32,000 nt of DNA from Candidatus Lokiarchaeum ossiferum (GCA_025839675.1 CP104013.1:3720001-3752000), one strand, 5' to 3'. Positions 4,396 to 28,324 are shown, counted from the first letter of the stretch. Made by a program: numbers and translations. Notes: generated by a model from the letters alone, not told the origin.

Positions 4396-5373
4396 CTAAA
4401 AATTTAAATCACCATATAATTTTTTTACGCATTCTGGACAAATTCCATGGGTGAGCTCTGCATCGGTATGAGTATGCAAGTATTCATCAACTCTATGCCA
4501 ATATCCCTTGTCATCTCGCATTTTATGACAGTTCGAACAGATTGGAAGTAATCCTGAAAGAGTTTTAATATGTTTAAGTTTTTCTTCCAATTCTTTTTCC
4601 CGTTGCTTTAATTCTCGAAAGATGATATTATATGGATTTTTTAAGCCGATTATGAGAATGGATTGCAAAAGGATAATATTCGCTAAAAATTTGAACAAAT
4701 GGCCTATAACATTAGAGATGCCAAATACCGATATATAAAAGGTAAACGATAGCTCCGATAAAGCGGTCAATATAAAAAACAGATATAAATTCCATCGAAT
4801 TTCTTGTGGAAATTCTTCTTTTCGCGATCGGAGTAGAAAAATGCTACCAATTAATCCTAAGGAAATGACGTATTCACTTATTTTCTTAAATGGTGTAAGA
4901 CCTTCCCCTTCGATAAAACAAACAGGGAAAATTTTGAAAACGAAAATGGCTAAACTCACAAGAAGTGACACAACGGTATACAGAAGGAAAACAGTTATCT
5001 CATGATTTTTGTTTTTTCGTATTGTTAATGCGAGAATAATTGATATTAATTGTAAATAACGCGATGCGATCCATAATTGGGTAGGTAAATTTGCATCAAA
5101 TCCTTCAAAGATATTCATTCCTTTGTACGACAGAACGTGTAATAAATCAATCATACCAATGAAAAATGATCCAATTCCTAAAAAAAGGTAAAAAGGATTT
5201 TCAATACGATTTCGGGATAACCAATAAAACATAAAGATACTAAATCCTGTAGCGATTGAAAAAATCTCAATTAAACTGTGAAACACTAAAAAAGAATATA
5301 CACTCAGGAGATAAAACCCTACAATTGTTAAAAATAGAAAACTCCCATATTTGATTACTTTTCTTCTTTCCAT
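4396..5373 (-). CDS. MASE3-like integral-membrane sensor with coiled coil and C-terminal CxxC...HxH...CxxC module
   Basis: About 7 hydrophobic segments carry MASE3-type motifs: FHSLIEIFSI, LLHVLSYKGMNIF and LPTQLWIASRYL. A coiled coil follows (RELKQREKELEEKLKHIK). The C-terminus reads LPICSNCHKMRDDKGYWHRVDEYLHTHTDAELTHGICPECVKKLYG. Confidence 0.7.
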   Translation of the reverse strand: MERRKVIKYGSFLFLTIVGFYLLSVYSFLVFHSLIEIFSIATGFSIFMFYWLSRNRIENPFYLFLGIGSFFIGMIDLLHVLSYKGMNIFEGFDANLPTQLWIASRYLQLISIILALTIRKNKNHEITVFLLYTVVSLLVSLAIFVFKIFPVCFIEGEGLTPFKKISEYVISLGLIGSIFLLRSRKEEFPQEIRWNLYLFFILTALSELSFTFYISVFGISNVIGHLFKFLANIILLQSILIIGLKNPYNIIFRELKQREKELEEKLKHIKTLSGLLPICSNCHKMRDDKGYWHRVDEYLHTHTDAELTHGICPECVKKLYGDLNF

Positions 5374-5463: not shown

Positions 5464-6546
5464 TTAAATCACATCTAAATTTAATTGTATTAGCGCTTTG
5501 TTCAGTAATGGCAAAAAAGCACCCATATTGTAAATGGTATTGTAGACCTTTTCAATTCCATATTTATCATGTAATAACCCCCAAATTTCGTTTCCAAAAC
5601 TATAAAATCGACTTTGCTTTAATCGAGGAGACTCATCTGGAGATTGTTCTGCAGTTTTATCATTCATCCAGTATTTTTGAAAAAGGGCCATTAATTGATC
5701 TTGAGAAGTAATTTCTCCATTGCGAATCATTTGAATATGATTTCTGAACATCTGGAAAGTATTTTCAAAATCGTTATTCAAGTATTCCCATGAAAATCGA
5801 TCCAATCCAATATTTTCTGGTAAATCAAGATATAATGGTTGGGACAAAATTCCCTTAGCATTATTGCAATATTTAACTGCTAATCCTTCACCTGAGAAAA
5901 GAAGGAAGAATAATTGCTCTAAAGGCATGTTCACAATATCAAGACTATCGTGGATTTCATTCATTGCGATATGATGAATTTCATGACCAATACAAAATCG
6001 GATTTGTTCAGGTGTAAATTCCTTGATTAATTGAATGAAATCAAAATGAATATATTTTCGTCCATCTTCAGTTTGATGGGGGTAACCAAATGACATACCG
6101 ATTCCAACCGTAAATAGAAATGTGACTTTACCGAATTGAGTTCCCTTGGGTAATCCTTTTAGAGCGAGATCCCCTTGTTCCTTAATAATCTCGGGTGTAA
6201 AAATACTTTCAATCAAATCCAATTTAGACTGATAGTCATCTACATGTTCTATCAAGTATTTGAAGTGATCAAATCGCACTAGTAGATCTTCATTTTTTAT
6301 AGAACTCTTCTCTATGGATTGGAAGTTAAGAATAAAATCGATTAATTCCGATTTTTGAACCCGATTTCCATATCGGGAGAATTCAACAACATAATCTGGG
6401 TGATCAAGAATCTCTTCTAGTTGTTGACGAATCGCTATCTTGTTTGCATTTGGCTTTCTTAAGTTTTTAAAAATTAGTATCATCTGTTCCAAGGTGGCCT
6501 TTTGAAACGAGATTTGTAATGGTTCTATAAGATTTATTTTTTGCAT
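5464..6546 (-). CDS. Hypothetical protein with HExxH motif (putative Zn-dependent peptidase-like, DUF2268-like)
   Basis: 360-aa ORF. A single metalloprotease-type motif, CIGHEIHHIAMNE, lies in the second half. No signal peptide or TM segment is visible. The family assignment is tentative. Confidence 0.55.
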   Translation of the reverse strand: MQKINLIEPLQISFQKATLEQMILIFKNLRKPNANKIAIRQQLEEILDHPDYVVEFSRYGNRVQKSELIDFILNFQSIEKSSIKNEDLLVRFDHFKYLIEHVDDYQSKLDLIESIFTPEIIKEQGDLALKGLPKGTQFGKVTFLFTVGIGMSFGYPHQTEDGRKYIHFDFIQLIKEFTPEQIRFCIGHEIHHIAMNEIHDSLDIVNMPLEQLFFLLFSGEGLAVKYCNNAKGILSQPLYLDLPENIGLDRFSWEYLNNDFENTFQMFRNHIQMIRNGEITSQDQLMALFQKYWMNDKTAEQSPDESPRLKQSRFYSFGNEIWGLLHDKYGIEKVYNTIYNMGAFLPLLNKALIQLNLDVI

Positions 6547-16313: not shown

Positions 16314-18636
16314 GGCAGTATTACGGGATATTTACTTTCACAAAGGAAGGAGTTTTATTACCTTCTTTGCGTTATTTTTAGTGATCGCTTTCCCAATTGC
16401 TATGTTTTCAACTAGTCCTTCAATCGAAAACTCGATAGAAACAAACTATGAAGAATATCATCTGGCTCAACTCGATCTTTTTCTGGGCCCCGTTCATGAA
16501 GACCTCACCGATAATATTTCTGACACAATTTTGGATACCATTGGGACTTCTCCAGAACGAATTCAAGCCCGTTTAAATACCAATACAAAACTCAACCATG
16601 AGGATACATGGTATTCAGTCCATACGCTTGGGGTTGATCCAAACAAATCCTACGATATCAATGAAGTAGAAGTTATAGAGGGGCATTTTGCCATGAAGGA
16701 AGGCGAGATTGCTATTTTAGATACCTTTGCTTCGCATCTGAACGTCTCCCTTGGAGATTCACTGACCTTTAATTTGAATGAAAAGAATGCAACCTTTTCC
16801 ATTGTGGGATTAGTGAAAGCAATAAATTACTTGAGTTATGAACTTATACAAGAAGGGGCCGTCTATCTAAATGAAGCCGATTTACGGGACCTAATGGGAT
16901 ATCCAGAAAATTATTACAATGAGGTTGTGATATATTTTTCTGAGAATACCACTGATGATGAAATTGAAGAATCCTCCATTGATGTTAGAGATTTCTTGGA
17001 GGATAACCACATACCCGTATACTTAGTTTGGCATACTCGTGTTGTATCTTATAGTGCTGTGCTTTCCGATGCACTCAGCTTAACTTCGAGTTATTTAGCC
17101 ACTTCAGCGATTCTAATAATCATAATTGTGGGTATCGTTATTTTTATTATCACAAAACGCTATGCTATCGAACAACGAAAACAAACTGGGATGCTGTATT
17201 CTTATGGATTTTCTTCTAAAACTATTATGCTTGCGTTCCTCCTCCGAACTTTTATTCTCTCGATATTTGCTATCATCATTGGATCCGTTGCTGGTTGGAA
17301 TCTGCTCAAACTTCTATCTTCCTTTTTAGGGAATTTGTGGGGTTTGATGGATGTGACTGCTATATTAACTGCAGGGGTGCTCATCGAAGTGATAGTCTCC
17401 ACATTTGTGGTATCGTTGCTATTTACTTTCCTTGCTGCACGCGAAAATGTATCACTCACACCTTATGAAGCAATCCGAGGAAAGGCCAAAGAATTTTCCC
17501 AAAAACTAAATTTCAGCTCCATGCTTCGTTTTCCAATGCAGCTGAAAGTTCCTATGCGAAATGTGTCACGCAGTAAAATGCGCAGTATTTTGACTGTCTT
17601 GGCATTTAGTGGATCAATTATGCTATCATTCTCTCTCATTAATACTCAAACCTGCCTTTCGGCCACTCAAGAGGATTATTTTTCCAAACTCACATGGGAT
17701 GTTCAGAGTGTTTTTAATACGCCCGATTATTCAGATAGTATTTATGAAGAGTTGAAAGAAAATGAGGCCATTGTCACCAGTGAACCGTTTCTGAAACTTA
17801 ATGTCCAATTTTTCGAACAAGTCGAACAAATGACAAATCTTAGGGGATTCTTGTCAAATAGCACTTTAAATGAAATTGATCTTCAAGAAGGGACTGGTTT
17901 TTCTGAAGATATTAAGAATGAAGTAATCCTCTCCCAATATAGTGCGGATAATCTTGGATACACCGTTGGGGATAATTGTAGTTTTTGGTTATTTGATCGT
18001 CAAATTAATGTGACCATCGTGGGTCTTAGTCGTACCATGGATATGCCAATCGCCATGTATATACAGTTGGAAACCTTGGAAGATATCTTTGGTTTTATGC
18101 CGATTAATGGCATGTTGGTGGATGTACAAGATGATGAGCTTGATGATTATATGGATGATCTTAATGAAAATCCTGATGTGCAATTTGCTATCAAAAAAGC
18201 TAAATTTGTTGTGCAAATACGACAAGTGATAGCGTCTCAGACTGTGATTGTGAACATTATGGTTGTTTTAGGACTAATCGTCTCTTTCCTCTCAATCTTT
18301 TCCACCACATTAATCATTGTAATTGAACGGGAGCGGGAATATGCCCTGCAAAGGGTATTTGGTTTTTCAACGTGGCAAATTCTGACTCAAATTTTCCTTG
18401 AGCTGATGTTCTTAGTGGTAATCGCTTTAGGACTTGGCTATCTCTCTGGGAATTATCTAAGTATCTATTGGAAAAATTTAGTAGCTCGAAATTTCTTTTC
18501 AGTGGATACCTATTTCATATGGACCGATTATGTTCTTCTATTTATCTTCGCCCTCGGCGGCAGCTTATTTTCCCTATTTCCAGAGTATAGGTCCCTCCAA
18601 TCCCAATGTTTGGCCGAAGGAATTAAAGAAGAATAG
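16288..18636 (+). CDS. ABC transporter permease with two FtsX-type modules
   Basis: 782 aa. Two TM bundles each have an FtsX-like cytoplasmic loop (KRYAIEQRKQTGMLYSYGFS and IEREREYALQRVFGFS). Large soluble domains separate them. The GTG start overlaps the ATPase gene by 26 nt. Confidence 0.8.
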   Translation: MPKLKAIYKAVLRDIYFHKGRSFITFFALFLVIAFPIAMFSTSPSIENSIETNYEEYHLAQLDLFLGPVHEDLTDNISDTILDTIGTSPERIQARLNTNTKLNHEDTWYSVHTLGVDPNKSYDINEVEVIEGHFAMKEGEIAILDTFASHLNVSLGDSLTFNLNEKNATFSIVGLVKAINYLSYELIQEGAVYLNEADLRDLMGYPENYYNEVVIYFSENTTDDEIEESSIDVRDFLEDNHIPVYLVWHTRVVSYSAVLSDALSLTSSYLATSAILIIIIVGIVIFIITKRYAIEQRKQTGMLYSYGFSSKTIMLAFLLRTFILSIFAIIIGSVAGWNLLKLLSSFLGNLWGLMDVTAILTAGVLIEVIVSTFVVSLLFTFLAARENVSLTPYEAIRGKAKEFSQKLNFSSMLRFPMQLKVPMRNVSRSKMRSILTVLAFSGSIMLSFSLINTQTCLSATQEDYFSKLTWDVQSVFNTPDYSDSIYEELKENEAIVTSEPFLKLNVQFFEQVEQMTNLRGFLSNSTLNEIDLQEGTGFSEDIKNEVILSQYSADNLGYTVGDNCSFWLFDRQINVTIVGLSRTMDMPIAMYIQLETLEDIFGFMPINGMLVDVQDDELDDYMDDLNENPDVQFAIKKAKFVVQIRQVIASQTVIVNIMVVLGLIVSFLSIFSTTLIIVIEREREYALQRVFGFSTWQILTQIFLELMFLVVIALGLGYLSGNYLSIYWKNLVARNFFSVDTYFIWTDYVLLFIFALGGSLFSLFPEYRSLQSQCLAEGIKEE

Positions 18637-18859
18637 GAAGATTTATTGGATCTTTCGTTTTTTTATTCCAATTGTTAAACAAAACCCATTTGAACCAAAC
18701 ATTCTTTCAGAAAACCATGGTATCAACCAACTGAAATATCTTAAACATCCAAATTTAACAACTGGTCATCCAACATAGTTTAAATTGGAAAATACCTTTT
18801 TTCACTTTTTCAATCTGTTATATCAAAACGGCTAAAAATTTGGCCTCGTTTTTTTATCT

Positions 18860-19405
18860 ATGATCGAAATTCCAACCCTCCCCTCGGCGAGGTTAGTCTT
18901 AAGAAAACCAATGGAAAAGGATGCCATCGATCAATTGGAGTTATTTCGAGATCCAGAGGTCATGCGTTTTCATGGAGAAGAACCCTATCAATCTCTCCAA
19001 GAAGTAAAAGATGAGATTAATGCTTTTGTGGAGCTTGCTGAAACGGAAGAAGGGATGATTTGGATGATCATTTTAAAAGAAACAGATCAATGTATTGGAG
19101 ATATCGGATTTTTTAAGTGGGATAAAGCCAATTTCCGATGTGAAATTGGGTTTAAACTCAAACGAGATTGTTGGGGGAAAGGGTTAATGTCAGAGGCAGT
19201 CACAACGATTCTTGATTTTTTGTTTAATGAACTTAATTTAAACCGGGTGGAAGGATTGGTAGATCCGAACAATCTGCCATCTCAGAAGTTATTACGTCGC
19301 TTAGGTTTTCAAATGGAAGGGGTTCTGCGTGATTATGAGTTTGAAAAAGGTCGATTTGGCGATCTCCAGATGAATTCGTTATTAAAACGCGAATGGAATA
19401 AATAA
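18860..19405 (+). CDS. GNAT N-acetyltransferase, RimJ/RimL-like
   Basis: RLVLRKPMEKDAIDQLELFRDPEVMRF and WGKGLMSEAV...LNLNRVEGLVDPNNLPSQKLLRRLGF are typical of the Acetyltransf_3 subgroup. Confidence 0.85.
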   Translation: MIEIPTLPSARLVLRKPMEKDAIDQLELFRDPEVMRFHGEEPYQSLQEVKDEINAFVELAETEEGMIWMIILKETDQCIGDIGFFKWDKANFRCEIGFKLKRDCWGKGLMSEAVTTILDFLFNELNLNRVEGLVDPNNLPSQKLLRRLGFQMEGVLRDYEFEKGRFGDLQMNSLLKREWNK

Positions 19406-19515
19406 GGAGTTATAATTTTATTCTTCACCTATACTAAATATCTCTCTAAGTTTTTTTAAGAAATTTATAATTCATAATCATTATCCTTAAGATTTACTTC
19501 ATCTTCACTGCTTTT

Positions 19516-20265
19516 ATGAAGTCAATTCCCCATTCAATGTTAAAAATTAAGAAAATTTATGATATTATTATCCCCGCTGGGAAAATTCTGCAAGATATTG
19601 ATAAAAATCATCAATTTAATGACAATCTTCTCGAAAATCGAACAGTTAAACCCCAGAATAAGGAAGTATTTGCGATAATCGGAATTTTAATGTGGATGTT
19701 CATGATTAAATACTTGCTTGACTTCTTAGGTGTTTTTGGGGAGATTTTATTTTTTCTATTAATCCCCCTAAGTGCGTTAAGCCATTTAGTCGGTGAAGTC
19801 GATGAATTTCAAAAAAATTCTCCTGCTCCAGAAGAAAAATTTCCTCGGGCTCGCGTTATTGAAATTTTCCTATTGCAGATAATTTATATCGGGTTTGCGT
19901 TTTTCAGTCTTCGCGGATTTATTGGACACACTATATTAGCAGACACAGTAGCAATGGATATTGGATGGCCGATTGGGAGTCCTTTTCAAATTGAACTTGC
20001 ATTTTATCATCTTGGTCTTGGAATAATGGGTATTCTGTGCATTTGGAAGCGAGATTCGATCTGGATCGGCTTAATTTATTCGAAGTCCATATTTCTTTTG
20101 GGAGCAGCGGGTGTTCATTTTTGGGACATTTTTGCAAATCAAAACCATTCCCATGGGAATACAGGAACGATATTGTATCTTCACGACTTAGCCTTACCGA
20201 TAATTTCAATAATACTTCTACATATCTATTTAAAGTTTCAAGGTGAATGGAAGAAAAATGAATAA
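19516..20265 (+). CDS. Hypothetical integral membrane protein
   Basis: It has several hydrophobic segments: FAIIGILMWMFMIKYLLDFLGVF, IFLLQIIYIGFAFFSL, LGLGIMGILCIW, IFLLGAAGVHFW and LALPIISIILLHIYL. The start is uncertain. Confidence 0.5.
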   Translation: MKSIPHSMLKIKKIYDIIIPAGKILQDIDKNHQFNDNLLENRTVKPQNKEVFAIIGILMWMFMIKYLLDFLGVFGEILFFLLIPLSALSHLVGEVDEFQKNSPAPEEKFPRARVIEIFLLQIIYIGFAFFSLRGFIGHTILADTVAMDIGWPIGSPFQIELAFYHLGLGIMGILCIWKRDSIWIGLIYSKSIFLLGAAGVHFWDIFANQNHSHGNTGTILYLHDLALPIISIILLHIYLKFQGEWKKNE

Positions 20266-21088
20266 AAAGGACCGCTTGCTTGATCTTCTAACTCCCATTT
20301 TTGAGAAAGCTATTAGAGAGAATAATAGCAATTCTTTATACCAATTTCTCATTCAGAATTGTGAACTCCCTGGAAGGAGAGCTAACTTGGAATTGGCTCA
20401 TGCCTTCAGTATCTGTGTAATGAATGATAAAAAAGCACTTTTAAAATCAGCAAAATGGCAATTATTAGAAGGGTTGGTCAGTGTTTCTGAAGCAGTTGCT
20501 CCTGTTAATTCGCCGAAAGAGTTCTTACCCTTTAGTGGTTATATTGGGATGGGGGGATTTGTTAAAAAGAATCCCGAATATTTGGACAAAGTTTTGCAAC
20601 ACTACAAAAATGCGGCTGTTGATGGAAGATGGCGGGTAAGGGAAGCGATTGCGCAAGGAACCAAGTATTTTATTGCTGATCACGCCGATTCTATCTTTAT
20701 TGAATTCAAAAAATGGGTGGATGAACATGATTTTATGTTAATACGTGGGGCTCTAGCAGGGTTAGCAATTCCTTCTTTTTTAGAAGACCAAAAGTATTCT
20801 GTAAAATTGCTCGATCTACTCGGTGATGTAATTACAATTGTCCAGCAAATTGAAGAAGTCCATTATAAAGATGATAAATTTATTATTCTTGAAAAAGGAT
20901 TAAAATTTATTATTAGCGTGGCGGTAGCTTCCAATCCACGGTATGGATTTGAATTGATGTTCCATTGGACTGATGGAGCTTCCTCAAAACTAACAAAAAT
21001 ATTAATGGAGAATTGTAAGAAAGCACGAATCGCAAAAAAATTTCCTCAAGAAGTTCAAGCGGTTATGAAAATTTTGAAATCTAATTAA
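20243..21088 (+). CDS. Hypothetical all-helical (HEAT/ARM-like repeat) protein
   Basis: Helical-hairpin-like segments are present (RRANLELAHAFSICV, DGRWRVREAIAQG). The likely ATG at 20258 overlaps the upstream stop (ATGAATAA), which suggests coupling with the membrane protein gene. Confidence 0.45.
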   Translation: MNGRKMNKKDRLLDLLTPIFEKAIRENNSNSLYQFLIQNCELPGRRANLELAHAFSICVMNDKKALLKSAKWQLLEGLVSVSEAVAPVNSPKEFLPFSGYIGMGGFVKKNPEYLDKVLQHYKNAAVDGRWRVREAIAQGTKYFIADHADSIFIEFKKWVDEHDFMLIRGALAGLAIPSFLEDQKYSVKLLDLLGDVITIVQQIEEVHYKDDKFIILEKGLKFIISVAVASNPRYGFELMFHWTDGASSKLTKILMENCKKARIAKKFPQEVQAVMKILKSN

Positions 21089-21215
21089 GGATTACAATTG
21101 TTTTTTAAAAATTAATTTTTTGTCTCGAATATCCATGATAATTCAAATAATGCATCGTTCTCGCTTGGATTTTTACATAAATTCTATTTGAGTCCATTTT
21201 TTCTTATTTTATAGG

Positions 21216-21650
21216 TTATTGGCTCTCCACATAGGTCTTGAAAAAGTTCATATCCTTCAATGTTTGTTTTGGAAACGAAGTTCTCATGAAAAATCCTATA
21301 AATTTCATGACTCCTGAAAACTGAAATACATTGTGATTCACCCATTTAGTTGTATCAGGAGTTATAGCAAAAAAATGGTTTTCTACTTCATTATAAACTC
21401 CTTTTGCTTCATAGGTCGCAGTGAAAATATCCGGAAAATTTCTATTCAAAATAGTTTCAATCATTTCTACATTCCTTCCATTTTCCAAGTATATTAATTG
21501 TGTTTTTGCCCCTTTTTGACCAGGTATTCCTTCTAAATGTTCAACTTTTTGTAAGCCCGGTTGCCATTTTTGAAGATGTTCATAACTATCAAAATATTGA
21601 ATTACTTCAGTTAGGGGACGATTAATAATGATTTCAACTTGATATTTCAT
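21216..21650 (-). CDS. SRPBCC (START/polyketide-cyclase-like) family protein
   Basis: 144 aa. The N-terminus MKYQVEIIINRPLTEVIQYFDSYEHLQKWQPGL is typical of the family. Confidence 0.7.
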   Translation of the reverse strand: MKYQVEIIINRPLTEVIQYFDSYEHLQKWQPGLQKVEHLEGIPGQKGAKTQLIYLENGRNVEMIETILNRNFPDIFTATYEAKGVYNEVENHFFAITPDTTKWVNHNVFQFSGVMKFIGFFMRTSFPKQTLKDMNFFKTYVESQ

Positions 21651-21715
21651 GAAAAATTAATCGAATATAAAAATATAAACCATTTTCTTATTTTTATGAA
21701 TAAATTTAAAGAGAT

Positions 21716-21748
21716 TTCCTATTTTAAACAAATCTTCTAAAATAGGAA
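21716..21748. promoter_or_regulatory. Perfect 11-bp inverted repeat TTCCTATTTTA-N11-TAAAATAGGAA in a divergent promoter region
   Basis: The arms are 21716-21726 and 21738-21748. It lies 66-98 nt upstream of the SRPBCC start and about 175-205 nt upstream of the gelsolin-like gene. Confidence 0.25.
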
Positions 21749-21922
21749 CAGTAATTAATCAAACTAGCTTAAAAAAAAAAGGGAGAAATTTTAAACATCA
21801 AAAAATGATTAATATTGGGGTTTCCTAGAACAAAACATAAAACGTAATGAAATTCTAGTCAAAATACCTCAACTCATTCCTTCCTAACTAAATTTCTCAT
21901 CAAATCTTCCTAATGAATCACT

Positions 21923-24466
21923 ATGTCAGAAAACACCATACTAATCTATAAGCTTAACACTGAAGGAAATATCATTGAAATCGATCCAACAAAGTTATTG
22001 GATGAATTTATTTCTGTTAATATCATCTTCTTCTATTTTTGGGATGAAAAACATCTATATGTGTGGATTGGCCAAAATGCTGGCAAGGAAATGCGCAAAT
22101 ATATTCCCCCCGCGGAAGAAAAAATTCTGAAATCCAATGATCGAGTTCGGATTCTCCGCCATTTTACTGTAGATCAAAATCAAGAATCTCGCGAATTTCT
22201 CGAAAAAATTCATCTCGATAAGAAGGATATTAAAAAACGGTCGGATGATTATTCCAAATATCGCATTAGTGTCTATCAAGAAATTCAAGATCTCCAAGTC
22301 GAAAAAGGGTCTAATTCAATGGTTGGGAAATTTGATGATGCGATTATTAAGGCGCGTGAAATAATTGAAACAGCCAAAAAAGTTAATGATGCAGATGTAA
22401 TCGAAGAAGAAGAACGATTTATTAAAGAAATGGAAGGAAATAAGGCGATTGCCGAAAAACGTAAAGAAGCTTCCAATAAAATCGCCTCGCTAACTGAATT
22501 ATTGCAAAGTCATATCGCTTCCAAAGATCCACTTGAGGCGCATACAGTTGCAGATGAGATCCGCACCCTTTATACCACATTAATTAAACGAGCAATACCC
22601 GGGACGTTGAAGCAACTCCTTTTCAAAGAAGAAAAGTTCTATGAAAGTTTCCGACATCAACAAGATGAAATTAAAGCGAAAGTGAATAAATTTGTGCACC
22701 CGATTGATCAAGATATTGAAACTCAAGATTTTGCGGATGCAAAGGAAAAATTCCAACAAGTATTTGAACTTCTTAAAGATTCAAAAGATGAAACTTTAAT
22801 TCAAGAATGGCAAGCAAAGCAGAAATATTTAGATGAACAGAAAGATTCTTGGGAAAAAGAACAAGAAGAAATTCGGAAACGGGAAGAAGAAATTGCTCGA
22901 AAAATTTCCGAGTTAAAAGCTGAAATTACCAAAGCTTTTGAAGCAAAGGATTATGAACAGGTGCAATTCTATCTCGCTGGATTAGAAAGTGTAAAAGAAG
23001 ATACTACTAAAAAAGACGTGTTAGAACAAACTCAAACTTATTCCTCCGAAATTCAAGAGAAATTGGCCCATATGCTTTTAATTGATACAAAAGTGGAGAA
23101 AATTACTACTAATCTTGCTGAAAGCAATCAGTTTGCCAACCAAAAGAATTATAATGAAAGTCTCGCTAAATTAGAAGCCACGCTTGAATTAGTTACATTA
23201 CCTGAATTGGAAGAGTATAGAGAAAAAATCGAATCAGAAATTCTACGAGTTAAAGGAGAAAAAGAAGTTTTCCAAAAACGGCTACAGACTTTTGACAAGT
23301 TAACCCAAACCGTTGTTGAAAATCAAGCGAAATTACAATGGAATGTTGCGATTCAAAATTGCACTAAAATTATCGAATTGGCGAAGGATTGTGATAAACT
23401 TGATGAGATTCCTAAATACCAAGCAATACTCGATACTGTCACTGAAAAATATAATCGACAAAAACAACTCGCCTTAGAAGAACAGGAAGCATTACTACAA
23501 AAAGCAAAAGCGATTGAAAATATCATCGAAGTTGATGAAGGTGTACTCCCAATGGTAGATGATTTTGCTATTTCCGATTTACTTGGGGATCTGGATGCGG
23601 ATGTGGATAATATGATGGATCAGTTAGGCTCCCTCTTGGAAACACAAAGGGTTGAAATCAAGACCGATCTGAGCAGTAAATCTGTGATTCGCAGTGCATC
23701 TGGGGAAGTTTTGGAATTAAATACCACAACAAATATTAAACAGGATGATTCACCTGCTAATGGTGATGGGCATCAAAAACCAATTTCGTTTTCAGTGGAA
23801 TCAGGGTTAGATAATCCTTTTGATGATTTCATAGAAGAGGCGATTATTGAAGATATTATTCCATATAATTTTGAAATCTCCGAGATAACATTGAACGGTG
23901 AAATTCCAATAGAAAAACCCGAACAAATTCTCTTAAAAGATGGGATGCAATTACACTGGGTTGTGAAAGATATTGCCCCTAAAGAATCAGTCAAAATAAA
24001 TTACGATTTAAAGCGACGAGTTTCCCGTACCATTATTTTGCCCTTAGAAGATCAATTGAAGATAATCAAAACCCATACTAATGTGCACCAACTCCATTTA
24101 GAGGGTTTATATGATGCGCAATTAAAATTTGCCAACCAATTTAAATCCGTACTAAGAGGTGTTGTGATAGAAGATATTGTCCCACAATTTTACGTGTTTG
24201 AAGTAAAACAACCTGATAATATTAATCCAGACTCACAACTGGAACAAAGTGCGGGATCCTTAGTAAAGTGGAATATTACTCAATTAGAACAAGAACATTC
24301 CATGTTGCATCGCTATCAGTTGCTTGAAATATTTCGTTTTGAAGATTTGAAAATTTCTATTGATCAAATGAGTAATGCGGCCTTTGAGGAATTAGAAAAA
24401 GGTAAATTAGGGGCAAGTCTTCAAAAATATTCCGATCTCATGAAATTACTCGACGAATATAAGTAA
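21923..24466 (+). CDS. Gelsolin-like domain protein with long periodic helical/coiled-coil region and two DUF11-like beta-sandwich repeats
   Basis: aa 5-97, LIYKLN...EIDPTKLLDEFISVNIIFFYFWDEKHLYVWIGQNAGKEMRKY...RVRILRHFTVDQNQESREFLEKI, fits the gelsolin pattern (L..D.yil....iyvWiG..as..e...a...v.eg.Es.eF). aa 100-530 are charged and helical with about 66-aa periodic modules. aa 640-800 hold two repeats of type (I/V)IEDI(I/V)P...W....(I/L)....Y.L. No signal peptide or TM segment is present. Confidence 0.6.
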   Translation: MSENTILIYKLNTEGNIIEIDPTKLLDEFISVNIIFFYFWDEKHLYVWIGQNAGKEMRKYIPPAEEKILKSNDRVRILRHFTVDQNQESREFLEKIHLDKKDIKKRSDDYSKYRISVYQEIQDLQVEKGSNSMVGKFDDAIIKAREIIETAKKVNDADVIEEEERFIKEMEGNKAIAEKRKEASNKIASLTELLQSHIASKDPLEAHTVADEIRTLYTTLIKRAIPGTLKQLLFKEEKFYESFRHQQDEIKAKVNKFVHPIDQDIETQDFADAKEKFQQVFELLKDSKDETLIQEWQAKQKYLDEQKDSWEKEQEEIRKREEEIARKISELKAEITKAFEAKDYEQVQFYLAGLESVKEDTTKKDVLEQTQTYSSEIQEKLAHMLLIDTKVEKITTNLAESNQFANQKNYNESLAKLEATLELVTLPELEEYREKIESEILRVKGEKEVFQKRLQTFDKLTQTVVENQAKLQWNVAIQNCTKIIELAKDCDKLDEIPKYQAILDTVTEKYNRQKQLALEEQEALLQKAKAIENIIEVDEGVLPMVDDFAISDLLGDLDADVDNMMDQLGSLLETQRVEIKTDLSSKSVIRSASGEVLELNTTTNIKQDDSPANGDGHQKPISFSVESGLDNPFDDFIEEAIIEDIIPYNFEISEITLNGEIPIEKPEQILLKDGMQLHWVVKDIAPKESVKINYDLKRRVSRTIILPLEDQLKIIKTHTNVHQLHLEGLYDAQLKFANQFKSVLRGVVIEDIVPQFYVFEVKQPDNINPDSQLEQSAGSLVKWNITQLEQEHSMLHRYQLLEIFRFEDLKISIDQMSNAAFEELEKGKLGASLQKYSDLMKLLDEYK

Positions 24467-24506
24467 TCTCTTTTTTATCATTATCTCACTTCGAGGCAAA
24501 AAACCA

Positions 24507-26561
24507 ATGGCTCAGCTTTCTAAAGATGAACTCTCAAATATTACCCTTTTTCTGGCTGAATGGGATGAAGCATTAGGACCGACGGTAAAAGATTATTTCA
24601 ATACGCTGGTCGAACTTGGTGATGTGGATATGATCGCCTTGAACATCTTTTCCACTTTTCAGATGGTTTTTGGGGAATCTACAGATGTATCATTCAAACG
24701 CACTGTTTTAACCATGCCCATGAATTCTCAAAAGGTAATTGCACGCATCGTTTTAGATATTATTCCTGATACTGATGTCCGAGGGGGATTTATGCCCTTC
24801 ATTGTCGTGATATTAATCCCAGATTTCCTTCCCGAAGATAAGATCTCTTCTTTTGATGAGATATTGGCAAAAATCGTCTCCAATTATAAAGAACATCATG
24901 GAATATCTCTCTCAAATTATAAAGGGGAGATTTTAAATGCGTTTTCCTTGGCTCAGCAAATTATTGAAGATCATATTTCAATAGATGTCTCCTATTCTTT
25001 AACCAGTGCAGTAGATGATTTTAAAAAAGGGGTAGGGTTATACAAACAGAAAAATTGGAACACTGCTTACATGCTCTTTCGTAAAGCTCTTCTGAAATTC
25101 CAGCAAGACAATCAAACTAAAATGGTTATGGAAGCAACATACCTCATTTCATCAATTTTAGTCCAACTGAAAAAGTTTCAACCCGCCTTGATCTATTACA
25201 CCAATCTTGTCCCCCTTGCTACTGAAATGTCTCATCAGAAGTATAAAGAGTTGGGATTGTTCATGCAGGGATTTTGTCATTATAAAATGCGAGATTTCAT
25301 GGATGCGATGGATACTTTTAACCAACTCCCTATTTTTCAATCCCAATTCGTGAATAAAGTTCAATATTTTTCTCTCAAAGGGCAAACCCAAGCGAATTTA
25401 CAAATGCATCAAGAAGCGATCGAAAGTTTAAGCCAAGCCTCCCTCTTGCTAAGTCAACAACCGGTGACCCAAATGTTGCAAAAACAACATGCCCAAATTT
25501 TGAATGATTTAGCTCTCCAATATTATAAAAGTGTAATTTCATTGTTAAAAACACAAGGCTTTTTTCACCATGCCCAAGGCGATGAATTACAAGATCAATT
25601 AAAAACCGCGATTTCGTATTATATTCGTGCTATATCTTTGTGGGATTTGCTGGGAGATTATAAAAATTCTATTCGAGCGCATCAAATGGTAGGAAATATC
25701 TATGGTTTTCTTCTTAATCCTTCCAAACAGTTGGATCATCTATTAACTGCTTTGGATAAGGTCGATCAGCTCAACAACTATGCTTTGAAACTTAATATTG
25801 CCTTCCAAATCGTGGAAATATATGAATCCTTAAAGGAATATGATGCAATAATTCATTTTCTGCAGAATTTAGGAGCTCAACTCACAAATAATGCTTTTGT
25901 GGATTTACTCTCGATTGCAAAAATTCATTTTCTAATTGGGAAAGCATTTATTGCTGTAGATCAACGAAGAAATGCGGCGGGGGAGCTGATTATGGCTATC
26001 AATAACTTAAAAAAGCTCAAGAATCCCGTTCCAGAAGAACTTGAAGCCCATTCTTTATTGATTGAACTATATAAAGAAGAACAAGACGAAACAAAGGTGG
26101 CATACTATACGGATCGGTTTGAAAAGTTGCAAAAGAAATACCACGCCATTCAACCCGTTTCTCTGAGTCGACTTGGTGTAATCAAGGATTTTTGGGTGTA
26201 TACTACCTCGGGATTAGAACTCTTCTCGCATGCTCCAGAAATAAAATTTGATCCCACCCTCTTAGGTGGATTTTTAACAGCCATGCAGTCCTTTTCCATG
26301 GAACTTAGTCAAACCGAATTACAGTCTTTGGTTATCGGAGGGTCGATTTATTCGTTTTATAACGAAGCAGGATCGGAATTCTATATCTTAGGCCGAACAA
26401 AATCCAACATCCCTCCCCACACCATTGAAGCTGCATTACAAAAGATTTACCACGCGTTCTCAAAGGAATTTAAGGCAGATTTGGTGTCTTTTTCTGGAAA
26501 TACGATTGCCTTCAGACGTTTTAAAGATGTTCTTAAACAATTAGATTTAAGCTTAATTTAA
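24507..26561 (+). CDS. Longin/uDENN-like - TPR-like - longin/roadblock-like protein (putative small-GTPase regulator)
   Basis: The N-terminus reads ITLFLAEWDEALGPTVKDYF...PFIVVILIP (W/F-D-E-x-x-G-P type). aa 165-545 are TPR-like helical repeats (GVGLYKQKNWNTAYMLFRKAL...). The C-terminus (aa 556-680) reads VIKDFWVYTTSGLELFSH...DPTLLGGFLTAMQSFSMEL...FYILGR. The stop lies 25 nt before the GTPase ATG. Confidence 0.55.
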   Translation: MAQLSKDELSNITLFLAEWDEALGPTVKDYFNTLVELGDVDMIALNIFSTFQMVFGESTDVSFKRTVLTMPMNSQKVIARIVLDIIPDTDVRGGFMPFIVVILIPDFLPEDKISSFDEILAKIVSNYKEHHGISLSNYKGEILNAFSLAQQIIEDHISIDVSYSLTSAVDDFKKGVGLYKQKNWNTAYMLFRKALLKFQQDNQTKMVMEATYLISSILVQLKKFQPALIYYTNLVPLATEMSHQKYKELGLFMQGFCHYKMRDFMDAMDTFNQLPIFQSQFVNKVQYFSLKGQTQANLQMHQEAIESLSQASLLLSQQPVTQMLQKQHAQILNDLALQYYKSVISLLKTQGFFHHAQGDELQDQLKTAISYYIRAISLWDLLGDYKNSIRAHQMVGNIYGFLLNPSKQLDHLLTALDKVDQLNNYALKLNIAFQIVEIYESLKEYDAIIHFLQNLGAQLTNNAFVDLLSIAKIHFLIGKAFIAVDQRRNAAGELIMAINNLKKLKNPVPEELEAHSLLIELYKEEQDETKVAYYTDRFEKLQKKYHAIQPVSLSRLGVIKDFWVYTTSGLELFSHAPEIKFDPTLLGGFLTAMQSFSMELSQTELQSLVIGGSIYSFYNEAGSEFYILGRTKSNIPPHTIEAALQKIYHAFSKEFKADLVSFSGNTIAFRRFKDVLKQLDLSLI

Positions 26562-26586
26562 TTCAATATATGTGGGGGAAAATTCA

Positions 26587-27087
26587 ATGAAACGACTTAA
26601 AATTGTTGTATTAAGGTTGGATCGCGCAGGAAAAACGGTGTTAGTAAACTATTTGATCTCAAAAAAGGTTGAAACTCAATTTCGACCCACTTTAACCTTT
26701 TCAATTAAAAGACTGAAATTATCTGACCGCACAATTGTTTTTTGGGATGCTCCCGGTCAAAAAAATTTACGAGGAACTTGGATGGATAGTTTGAAAAAAG
26801 CGGATTGCTTGATATATTTAGTAGATGTCGGTGATTTAGATCGGTTGAATGAATCGGTACATGAATTTCATCAAATTGCACAAAATGTTGATAGTTTAGA
26901 CATACCTCTCATTTTCTGCTATCATAAAGTGGATCTTCCTTACATCGAGGAGAATTTAGAAGAATGTAAAAAGGCATTTGATCTTGAAGGGCTCTATAAT
27001 GGTAAAATATTTCAATTGAATACTTCAGTCCACAATTCTGATTCGATTAGTGCAGTAGAAGAAATCTTACTCACTTTTGATCAATAA
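26587..27087 (+). CDS. Arf-family-like small GTPase with deviant G1/G3/G4 motifs
   Basis: It aligns without gaps to the Arf core. RLDRAGKT corresponds to GLDAAGKT, WDAPGQKNLRGTW to WDVGGQDKIRPLW, ADCLIYLVDVGD to GLIFVVDSND, and HKVD to NKQD. ATG 26587 is preceded by GGGGG; the track start GTG 26572 is possible. Confidence 0.8.
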   Translation: MKRLKIVVLRLDRAGKTVLVNYLISKKVETQFRPTLTFSIKRLKLSDRTIVFWDAPGQKNLRGTWMDSLKKADCLIYLVDVGDLDRLNESVHEFHQIAQNVDSLDIPLIFCYHKVDLPYIEENLEECKKAFDLEGLYNGKIFQLNTSVHNSDSISAVEEILLTFDQ

Positions 27088-27463
27088 ATCTTCTTTCTTG
27101 GGTTTGTAAGTTAAATATATTATACCACACACCATCTATAATATTAGATCTAAAGCTAGTAATGATATCATCCCAATAATCACTGTTTTTTCATTGAAAA
27201 ATAGGATGGATCCCCTAAATCCAAAAGCGCATATAAGCAAGATAAATAAAACATTTCTAATAGTGGGGTTTAACTTTTTGCTGTTTGACTTACTATCATA
27301 AAAAATGAGCTCATTAATAGAATTACATAGCTTTATCTTCTATTAAAAAACTTTTCAGTAATTCATACTAACTATCCCCCAGAATTCATAATGCTTTAAA
27401 ATAATGGGGTTGTATGTGTATTTCTAGTTAAAGAGGAAACCAAATAGAGATGAAAAAAGCTTC

Positions 27464-28324
27464 TCAGACCTTTTTTTGATTACACAATATATTATTATAA
27501 ATAAAATCGATATTGGCTTGCAGAAGCTGCGCATCTTGAATCTCTCCATGCCCTGAAATGATTGTTTGAAATCCTTCCCTCTGTAACTGTTGTAATAAAT
27601 TTATTAATTTCTGAGGATTTGTTGAAAATGGCATCATAGCTGTTTCTAAATTGAGGTCGTTTAAATTAGCAAAAGTGATATCCCCAGCAAATAATACCCC
27701 TTGATTCCGGATTTTCACAATAATATCTTCCTTTGTATGGGCTTCCCCCACATTGCAAATTTCCACATTAAAATCTTTTCCATGAATAATGAGGGTACCT
27801 TCTAAAATCCAATCGGGGGTGCGTAGTTGGTAATCCTTTGCATCAATCATATCTAAAAAAGCCAGATCAGATTTCAATTTCTGCCTTTTATTTGGATCAT
27901 TTTCATTCTGGAGTTGTTTACAGTCTTCATTTCTTTCCTTTGCACTTTCTATTCGCCATTTGGTCAAATTGTTGTGGGTGTAAGTTTGAATTTGGTTAAC
28001 TGTGTGGTTTGATCCGAGAATTGGAATCGAAATGGGAATAAAGCTATTTCCTAATACATGATCAGTGTGGAAATGCGTAGAAACCACCATGAATGGGTAT
28101 CTTCCGGAGAATTTTAAACAGGCTCGTAATAAATCCTTGGTTGCACCTTGAATCATCCCTGTGTCAATTAATAATGTTTGCTCACCAAGATCGATGAATC
28201 CTCCATTTGCTCCAGCATACATATTTGGTTTTGTCTGAGTGGCATAAATCCCCTTCGCGATTTCACTAATTGTGAAATAGGGGGAATTAAATTCCATACT
28301 AGTGATGCCAGTTTTTAGTTTCAT
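27464..28324 (-). CDS. MBL-fold metallo-hydrolase
   Basis: HxHxDH motif in STHFHTDHVLG, with later ligand candidates in GEAHTKED, FAGD and SGHG. It overlaps the MFS stop by 26 nt, or begins at ATG 28297, 1 nt past that stop. Confidence 0.85.
   Translation of the reverse strand: MKLKTGITSMEFNSPYFTISEIAKGIYATQTKPNMYAGANGGFIDLGEQTLLIDTGMIQGATKDLLRACLKFSGRYPFMVVSTHFHTDHVLGNSFIPISIPILGSNHTVNQIQTYTHNNLTKWRIESAKERNEDCKQLQNENDPNKRQKLKSDLAFLDMIDAKDYQLRTPDWILEGTLIIHGKDFNVEICNVGEAHTKEDIIVKIRNQGVLFAGDITFANLNDLNLETAMMPFSTNPQKLINLLQQLQREGFQTIISGHGEIQDAQLLQANIDFIYNNILCNQKKV

Follow-up and report, generated by a model that had tools for sequence, protein, structure and literature searches.

The three genes and their products

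The window analysed here is a stretch of 32,000 nucleotides from Candidatus Lokiarchaeum ossiferum (GCA_025839675.1, CP104013.1:3720001-3752000), and it contains a cluster of three co-directional open reading frames on the plus strand, encoding proteins of 847, 684 and 166 amino acids. Gene 1 (21923..24466) consists of a gelsolin-fold domain, a helical middle and a conserved C-terminal region, gene 2 (24507..26561) combines an N-terminal longin-like domain bearing a GP motif with a tetratricopeptide repeat (TPR) solenoid and a C-terminal longin domain, and gene 3 (26587..27087) encodes an Arf-family small GTPase. Genes 1 and 2 correspond to NEF87_003151 and NEF87_003152, each with 100% identity. 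The genes are separated by 40 nt (24467..24506) and 25 nt, and they are bounded upstream by a divergent, AT-rich intergenic region of 272 nt (21651..21922), presumed to be the promoter region, and downstream by a convergent spacer of 376 nt (27088..27463). This layout, together with the peptide motifs quoted for it in a preliminary description of the locus, was confirmed throughout in the sequence.

The N-terminal domain of gene 2 (amino acids 1 to ~135, 24507..24911) resembles longins of the NPRL2/C9orf72 type and carries the motifs WDEALGP (24561-24581) and VRGG (24777-24788). An exhaustive search with its profile hidden Markov model (HMM) found 166 cluster representatives, 75 of them at E<=1e-10. 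Over 129 domains of this type, W19 is conserved in 127, D20 in 109, G24 in 125, P25 in 98, R92 in 105, G93 in 105 and P97 in 104. The spacing of W19-D20 and G24-P25 is identical to that of W33-D34 and G38-P39 in C9orf72. Both the sequence pattern around R92 of the VRGG motif and the alignment with C9orf72 place this arginine in the loop that precedes the final strand. HHalign of the domain family against the longin of C9orf72 yielded collinear alignments over 93-129 columns (E 4e-4 to 9e-4, probability 23-34%) with the motifs in register, and against the b1-b2-a1 segment of NPRL2 the GP motifs were in register as well (E 1e-3); each of these scores was better than all 30 shuffled-template controls. 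The sequences used for C9orf72, NPRL2 and FLCN were confirmed to be exact against PDB chains. Direct HMM searches with the N-terminal domain gave no match in Pfam or the PDB.

Longin domains of the GTPase-activating proteins (GAPs) C9orf72, SMCR8, FLCN and NPRL2 carry a GP motif that precedes beta2 and adjoins the arginine finger, whereas adaptin, TRAPP and DENND longins are devoid of GP-type motifs; C9orf72 additionally requires W33-D34, and a class of Asgard longins with the same motifs was described, for which the partner GTPase was left open (ArfR or Rag) (PMC12290439). In DENN-type GAPs, the arginine finger was located between longin beta4 and beta5 (bioRxiv 10.64898/2026.01.05.697756). 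Liu et al. 2021 reported that 'NPRL2-like longin domains' of Asgards occur in fusion with domains of two-component signalling, and fusions to REC, GAF and PAS/HK domains are also present in the family of the gene 2 N-type domain. Because of these motifs, the HHalign register, the position of the arginine in DENN-type GAPs and the signalling fusions of NPRL2-like longins, the N-terminal domain of gene 2 is probably a GAP-type (NPRL2/FLCN/C9orf72) longin. The preliminary description had thought of a generic longin platform, acting either as a guanine nucleotide exchange factor (GEF) or as a GAP; the WD, GP and Arg motifs point to the GAP type instead. In several relatives, the N-type domain lies directly behind receiver domains, in proteins of ~300 amino acids, or behind a GAF domain (P0107, P0120, P0126, P0136, P0149 and P0143), and it appears to be a common output or partner module of varied switch and sensor domains.

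The core of gene 2 (amino acids ~165-540, 24999..26126) is a TPR-like solenoid, as already recognised in the preliminary description, with Pfam matches to TPR_12 (6e-7; 30.0 bits, just under the cut-off of 30.1), TPR_1, TPR_2, TPR_8, ANAPC3 and SNAP. The C-terminal domain (amino acids 543-684, 26133..26558) has no GP motif. Its AlphaFold2 model is of low confidence (predicted template modelling score 0.61, predicted local distance difference test (pLDDT) 58), and its DSSP topology is b-(b)-a-b-b-b-a-a. In a Foldseek search of the PDB, all of the top 50 matches were longin/roadblock platform domains with template modelling (TM) scores of 0.45-0.6, among them AP2 sigma (7e-4), other AP sigma/mu chains, zeta-COP, Ykt6, Sec22b and VAMP7, and further Mon1/Ccz1, TRAPP (Bet5/Trs23), Fuzzy-Inturned and SRX. 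Modelling thus supports a longin domain at the C-terminus. The profile of this domain found no match among PDB sequences, and HHalign of the N-terminal against the C-terminal domain detected no similarity. The proposal that longin domains occupy both termini of gene 2 therefore stood for the C-terminus, and for the N-terminus it was backed indirectly, by profiles, motifs and literature.

The architecture with both terminal domains was found in 32 further representatives of 50%-identity clusters (35 in all). One homologue, from a metagenome-assembled genome (MAG) of Promethearchaeota (L005:28-1875), ends right behind the TPR region and has neither the C-terminal longin nor an Arf gene next to it; with a contig coverage of 0.63x, this loss may be an assembly artefact. 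The precomputed annotation of gene 2 (P0001) also lists the Pfam family PF27421.1.

Gene 1 starts with a domain of gelsolin/ADF-cofilin fold (amino acids 1-113, 21923..22261) with an LYVWIG motif. The AlphaFold2 model of this domain, with block pLDDT values of 52-80, has the element order b-b-a-b-b-long a-b-a-a, and all of the top 50 Foldseek matches in the PDB were of the gelsolin/ADF-cofilin fold. The best match was the actin-bound Thorarchaeota ProGel (7c2f_B; E 2.4e-3, TM 0.70, root-mean-square deviation 3.3 A), and Loki, Heimdall and Thor 2DGel structures were also among the top 50. Sequence matches were weak: PF00626 (Gelsolin) of Pfam reached 14.9 bits (E 0.025), short of the gathering score of 21, and villin-1 was matched with E 0.013. 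The gelsolin/cofilin fold, which had been suggested for the start of gene 1 in the preliminary description, is thus supported by a model of moderate confidence. This domain came from a concatenated construct of three domains, of which the gelsolin part was usable and the inter-domain geometry was not interpreted.

Behind the gelsolin-fold domain follows a middle region (amino acids ~114-571, 22262..23635), which is predicted from the sequence to be helical and varies in length (~1000 amino acids in the homologue P0009). In an alignment of eight sequences, the C-terminal region (amino acids 572-847, ~275 residues, 23636..24463) is the most conserved part of gene 1 and makes up the family's invariant core, with 43 invariant columns and 41-52% identity to distant members. 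Neither Pfam nor the PDB gave an acceptable match to it, and the AlphaFold2 model of this stretch within the concatenated construct (pLDDT 20-45) was discarded. A match to yeast G-gamma (E 0.0075) was marginal and judged compositional, and an fn3_4 match was seen in one member only and not accepted. Homologues of gene 1 were collected from L002, L003, L006, L007, L008, L011, L012 and L015. In L011 (5618-7969), the public gene call starts at 5951 and drops the gelsolin-like domain, which is encoded upstream in the same open reading frame; a minus-strand call of 110 amino acids over this stretch is probably spurious.

The gene 1 protein could be related to proteome data from a preprint (bioRxiv 10.1101/2025.11.30.690169). 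The entry GNAMCCOK_03181 was matched to gene 1 by mass alone (98.39 kDa against a computed monoisotopic mass of 98.389 kDa), and it occurs in every proteome sample with a mean log2 of 16.06. Under this mass-based mapping, the gene 1 protein is expressed.

Gene 3 is strongly supported as a member of the Arf family, in agreement with the preliminary description, by a match to PF00025 (Arf) of Pfam (91.3 bits, with the cut-off at 22.3; E 6.2e-26; positions 13-163 of the 174 in the profile). The additional claim of a gapless alignment to the Arf core was nearly right: MAFFT alignment with human ARF1 requires an indel of one residue close to switch I and a few further ones behind G4. The mechanical open reading frame begins at a GTG (26572, 171 amino acids), which would shrink the spacer to gene 2 from 25 to 10 nt. 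The ATG at 26587 is preferred as start, since a Shine-Dalgarno-like GGGGG (26574..26578) lies 8 nt upstream and the orthologues have 166 amino acids. From this ATG, the protein begins four residues ahead of beta1 (MKRLKIVVL), and the 166-residue orthologues have no N-terminal extension either. Gene 3 therefore lacks the N-terminal amphipathic helix or myristoyl switch of Arf/Sar proteins.

The G3 motif of gene 3 is WDAPGQ, i.e. DxxGQ with the catalytic Gln present. The P-loop (RLDRAGKT) deviates from the G1 consensus GxxxxGK[ST] by R10 (codon AGG, 26614-26616), while glycine is found at this position (G[LI]DRAGKT) in all four orthologues (P0010-P0012 and L001_167), including that of the second L. 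ossiferum genome, CP163304.1. The two L. ossiferum genomes diverge by ~1.1%, evenly spread over the locus, and R10 is thus taken as a strain polymorphism or a sequence error and not as gene decay. If it is not simply a sequencing error, the arginine may impair the binding of nucleotide. The G4 motif is HK[VI]D in all orthologues (HKVD here), with the N of NKxD replaced by H, and is regarded as a signature of this subfamily. The deviating P-loop, the lack of an N-terminal helix in gene 3 and the conserved C-terminal region of gene 1 had gone unnoticed in the preliminary description.

Downstream of the convergent spacer lies a gene of the metallo-beta-lactamase fold on the minus strand (27464-28324), and its convergent pairing with gene 3 is kept in a relative of 40% identity (L001:23-1578). 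The GC content of the 21001-22000 interval, which overlaps the divergent region, is 0.28. Rfam and tRNA scans of the window gave no match.

Neighbourhood conservation and Arf fusions

To survey the neighbourhoods, 11 independent contexts of the gene 2 family were scanned with HMMs for each domain. Ten of them could be assessed for gene 1, as the upstream side of L005 ends at the contig end. In 5 of these 10 contexts, gene 1 lies immediately upstream of gene 2 and in the same orientation. Behind gene 2 follow the Arf gene of 166 amino acids in Lokiarchaeum, a Pirin gene in L008, a GH123 gene in L015, and in L011 an Rce1-like gene and then an Arf gene of 306 amino acids on the opposite strand. 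The fifth context, L012, holds a tandem duplication (L012:1631-10073) in the order gene 1 (770 amino acids), gene 1' (656 amino acids), gene 2' (682 amino acids) and gene 2 (690 amino acids). Gene 1' has no gelsolin domain and retains the C-terminal region, and the gelsolin domain is therefore dispensable in some paralogues.

Gaps between genes 1 and 2 are 14-40 nt (14-28 nt in L008, L011 and L015). Within these pairs, gene 2 is 31-37% and gene 1 32-52% identical, and all flanking genes differ. Since gene 1 lies directly upstream in half of the assessable contexts at such low identity and with unrelated flanks, there is strong evidence from gene order that genes 1 and 2 would form a functional pair. 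An early view that the gene 1 linkage was limited to one genus, derived from word-index searches with 3-5 relatives per gene and from L001, L002 and L006, was overturned by the exhaustive HMM search and the contexts. Scans of GTDB-representative genomes and metagenomes with gene 2 patterns found one locus, L005, and a scan with the C-terminal region of gene 1 found L006 only.

Two L. ossiferum strains, as well as relatives at 59-88% identity, have kept the complete trio, with changing flanks. Just 5' of gene 1, the window contains ~2.2 kb with three genes (249, 281 and 144 amino acids) that are absent from CP163304.1, and the latter has a gene of ~1 kb (315 amino acids), absent here, likewise just upstream of the trio. 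The coordinates of these strain indels are 19403-21628 and 18633-18819 in the window, and L007:3297-4314 and 4898-5042.

An Arf-family gene lies within two genes of the gene 2 homologue in 4 of the 11 contexts, namely Lokiarchaeum, L001, L011 and L014. In L001, an adh_short gene precedes gene 2 and an Arf gene of 292 amino acids follows 171 nt downstream; the gene 3 orthologue of this relative lies 9.5 kb upstream beside its metallo-beta-lactamase-fold neighbour. In L014, gene 2 is followed after 61 nt by an Arf gene of 325 amino acids and then by a gene 2 paralogue. Neither gene 1 nor an Arf gene was found in L009, L010 (a short contig) and L013.

The same association is seen within single proteins. 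Among 28 relatives in which the N-type domain is not N-terminal, 14 carry an Arf domain, in the checked cases directly ahead of the N-type domain, as in P0129 (Arf at 30-192, N-type domain at 201-326). P0094, P0113 and P0154 have the order X-Arf-domain, with PAS domains behind in P0094 and P0154, and one Arf-longin fusion protein comes from an Odinarchaeota MAG. The long Arf proteins next to gene 2 homologues (292-325 amino acids) are homologous over their full length to each other and to the Arf fusion proteins, and they may be longin-Arf fusions themselves. They are encoded at L001:12229-13107, L011:11071-11991 (minus strand) and L014:10081-11058 and have N-terminal extensions of ~125-150 amino acids, in which GP and RG(G) motifs can be seen by eye (in L014, YFNKIFGP...SWGRGN).

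The profile and Foldseek searches that the preliminary description had suggested as a check thus gave gelsolin-fold, longin and Arf matches, and the suggested neighbourhood survey bore out the pairing of genes 1 and 2 and, in part, the proximity of an Arf gene. Its proposal of one functional module is retained for the conserved gene 1-gene 2 pair and is favoured by the recurrent and fused Arf domains; as most loci of the gene 2 family have no adjacent Arf gene, the Arf link is looser than the link between genes 1 and 2.

Possible function and alternative readings

From these data, gene 2 is read as a regulator of Arf-like GTPases, most likely a GAP, that has its longin pair in a single chain, with gene 1 as its conserved partner, and we give this reading roughly even chances of being right. 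It builds on the observed gene layout, the folds of three domains, the conserved motifs, the kept adjacency of genes 1 and 2, the recurrent Arf neighbours and fusions and the expression of the gene 1 protein; the physical interactions, the GAP activity, the pairing of the longins in cis and any actin link are what we infer in it. Genes 1 and 2 would be a conserved two-protein unit of Lokiarchaeia (Promethearchaeota) serving Arf-family GTPases, and in Lokiarchaeum the client would be the adjoining short Arf-like GTPase, gene 3. The TPR solenoid might hold the two longins of gene 2 apart or bring them together, and the two longins might form a GTPase-binding platform in cis, as the trans-paired longins do in C9orf72-SMCR8, FLCN-FNIP and NPRL2-NPRL3. 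R92 and W19-D20 would speed up the hydrolysis of GTP by the Arf-like protein. Gene 1 would bind to this unit via its invariant C-terminal region, and its gelsolin-fold domain could provide a link to Lokiactin or an extra contact to the GTPase.

Several observations weigh against this reading. The N-terminal domain resembles C9orf72 and NPRL2 weakly, with HHalign probabilities of 16-34%, an alignment of R92 with the arginine finger R164 of FLCN was rejected with a score of 15.9 within the shuffle range, and no structure backs the fold, as the AlphaFold2 part of this domain (pLDDT ~30) was discarded. The domain is followed by a TPR solenoid and not by the DENN-type half that eukaryotic longin GAPs have, and the second longin lies in cis and not in a separate subunit as in the GAP class. 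At the level of the neighbourhood, 7 of the 11 contexts have no nearby Arf gene and 5 of the 10 assessable ones no gene 1, and gene 1 homologues occur without gene 2 in L002 and L006. Where an Arf adjoins a distant gene 2 homologue, it is the long paralogue (292-325 amino acids) and not gene 3, whose true orthologue in L001 sits well away from gene 2, and since Asgard genomes are rich in small GTPases, some Arf adjacency is expected by chance. Gene 3 has arginine in place of the first P-loop glycine and HKVD in place of NKxD, and its nucleotide cycle may therefore be atypical. Right behind the stop codon of gene 1, within the 40-nt spacer, lies a run of six T (24471-24476). In archaea, oligo-T runs can serve as terminators or belong to TATA-like elements, and this one could end transcription behind gene 1 or, within a TATA-like element, help to start that of gene 2. 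Finally, the two identifiers following GNAMCCOK_03181, which are expected for genes 2 and 3 under a tentative mapping, are not among the table rows covered; with an identifier mapping by mass only and part of the rows covered, this hints weakly at a lower abundance of the gene 2 and gene 3 products.

The alternative that survives best, although unlikely, is that gene 2 is not a GAP but a longin-platform GEF, or else an effector or scaffold that recognises Arf-like GTPases in a specific nucleotide state. In eukaryotes, longin platforms mostly act in nucleotide exchange (Mon1-Ccz1, TRAPP, DENN and Fuzzy-Inturned), and the SRX longin of SR-alpha serves the Arf-like SR-beta as an effector. Mon1/Ccz1, TRAPP Bet5/Trs23, Fuzzy-Inturned and SRX are among the structural neighbours of the C-terminal longin, the adjacency and fusion data for Arf fit such a role equally well, and the position of the N-type domain behind receiver and GAF domains would be expected of a generic output or binding module rather than of a catalyst dedicated to GTPases. 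What speaks for a GAP instead is that the WD, GP and Arg motifs, the most conserved positions of the family, are hallmarks of GAP-type longins and are absent from adaptin, TRAPP and DENND longins (PMC12290439).

It is somewhat less probable still that genes 1 and 2 alone are the functional pair and that gene 3 is a chance neighbour, kept within one genus in a GTPase-rich genome. The remote position of the gene 3 orthologue in L001, on the other side of gene 2 and beside the metallo-beta-lactamase-fold gene, would fit such a chance arrangement, as would the pairs of genes 1 and 2 without adjacent Arf gene in L008, L012 and L015. In a rough estimate that assumes a share of ~2% of genes for small GTPases, Arf adjacency is expected by chance in ~7% of contexts, so that 4 of 11 corresponds to a binomial P of ~0.02-0.03. 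Against a chance neighbour also argue the fusion of the same longin type to Arf in half of the 28 multidomain relatives and the membership of the long Arfs beside gene 2 homologues in the Arf-longin fusion family. In MK-D1, the genes for GTPases and for longins are as a rule not joined in operons (Tran et al., PMC10933270), which again fits a chance neighbour.

A more far-reaching version of the GAP reading has the GTPase switch wired to actin: the gene 2 GAP would set the state of the Arf-like protein and thereby control a gelsolin-fold regulator through the obligate partner gene 1. This is improbable on present data. In a Lokiactin co-immunoprecipitation from L. ossiferum B35, five gelsolin-homology proteins and 'an Arf GTPase' were enriched (bioRxiv 10.1101/2025.11.30.690169). 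An assignment of this Arf and these gelsolins to genes 3 and 1 was rejected, as gene numbers and masses disagree. The Arf in question (GNAMCCOK_04696 / UYP48373.1, Table S2/S3 of that preprint) is listed at 38.1 kDa, the size of the long Arfs. The mass-matched gene 1 protein was detected in the same experiment with 27 peptides and was not enriched (log2 fold change 0.78, p 0.34), and the earlier suggestion of a GTPase acting on an actin-binding scaffold finds no backing in these data. If the actin-wired reading were true, the locus would be an archaeal forerunner of C9orf72-SMCR8, FLCN-FNIP and GATOR1 and of the control of actin dynamics by GTPases.

Very unlikely, finally, is a primitive coat- or adaptor-like assembly without actin, in which the gelsolin-fold domain of gene 1 would contact the GTPase as Sec23 does Sar1 and the longin and solenoid of gene 2 would stand for the small/medium and large adaptor subunits: the gelsolin-like domain of Sec23 lies at the Sar1 interface and aids GAP catalysis, Asgard Sec23-like proteins do not have it (PMC11914678), AP sigma/mu and zeta-COP, several of them in Arf1-bound complexes, are top neighbours of the C-terminal longin, and the missing enrichment of gene 1 with Lokiactin would fit as well, but the N-terminal domain of gene 1 best matches actin-bound Asgard ProGel/2DGel and gelsolin/villin/cofilin with no Sec23/24 in the Foldseek top 50, the order and content of domains are unlike any known coat, gene 3 is devoid of the amphipathic helix that Arf/Sar proteins use on membranes, and one L012 paralogue does without the gelsolin domain.

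Returning to the reading of gene 2 as a GAP-type regulator, the locus is of interest as a rare testable match of an archaeal small GTPase with its likely regulator. Asgard genomes encode many small GTPases and longin/roadblock proteins, and pairs of GTPase and regulator are hard to predict because GTPase and longin genes are generally not found in operons (Tran et al.). Together with the Arf-longin fusions, the locus names an Arf-like GTPase, a GAP-type longin protein and a gelsolin-domain partner as candidates, with W19/D20, G24/P25 and R92 as candidate residues in gene 2, and these come from a cultured organism for which proteomics and an actin antibody are available. If the GAP activity proves true, longin-domain GAPs for Arf-family GTPases would predate eukaryogenesis, and if gene 1 binds Lokiactin, this would be the first link of a GTPase switch to actin in archaea.

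Comparison with known systems

None of the four domain types is new to Asgard archaea, where each counts among the eukaryotic signature proteins, and NPRL2-like longins with their fusions to signalling domains are on record as well. The preliminary description knew of no system with this composition, and our literature search likewise found no description of the longin-TPR-longin architecture, of its pairing with a gelsolin protein or of its association with an Arf-family GTPase. Among conserved neighbourhoods of eukaryotic signature proteins, Liu et al. 2021 listed ESCRT and a cluster of LAMTOR1-like, Rab-like GTPase and DENN genes, and the trio was not listed. The cluster of LAMTOR1-like roadblock protein, Rab-like GTPase and DENN is also an Asgard neighbourhood that joins a small GTPase with regulators of the longin/roadblock/DENN type. 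It differs in its Rab-like instead of Arf-like GTPase and in its other regulators and partner, and it spans most Asgards, whereas the trio has so far been found in Lokiarchaeia-type contigs.

Asgard gelsolins (ProGel, 1DGelX and 2DGel; Akil et al. 2020/2022) share with gene 1 the gelsolin fold, which is present as a single N-terminal domain and is nearest to ProGel (TM 0.70), and Loki 2DGel has the motifs YVWIG and DQ..E..FL in common with it. Gene 1 is distinguished by its 847 amino acids, with the conserved core in a separate C-terminal region, and by its behaviour in the Lokiactin experiment, where five other gelsolin-homology proteins of L. ossiferum were enriched and gene 1 was not.

The pair of SR-alpha SRX and SR-beta also combines a longin with an Arf-like GTPase without the classical Arf amphipathic helix, and SRX is structurally near to the C-terminal longin of gene 2. 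In contrast to the trio, SR-beta has a transmembrane anchor, SRX is an effector, and there is no TPR region, second longin or gelsolin partner. Counterparts of the N-terminal domain of gene 2 are the Asgard longins of the NPRL2-like and Folliculin-SMCR8 type (Liu et al. 2021; PMC12290439), which occur in the same phyla, carry GP and Arg motifs and, like the N-type family, are fused to REC, PAS, HK and GAF domains.

Among the nearest eukaryotic counterparts are longin GAP complexes, i.e. C9orf72-SMCR8(-WDR41) as Arf GAP and FLCN-FNIP and NPRL2-NPRL3 of GATOR1 as Rag GAPs. In these, the longins reside in two DENN-type subunits, whereas gene 2 is one chain with ~400 amino acids of TPR between its longins and no DENN half; they have no counterpart of gene 1, and the profile similarity of gene 2 to them is weak, with GAP activity only predicted here. 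What they have in common with gene 2 is a pair of longin or longin-like domains, of which one, the catalytic one in these complexes, carries GP before beta2 and an arginine, and at least one known client, that of C9orf72-SMCR8, is an Arf GTPase.

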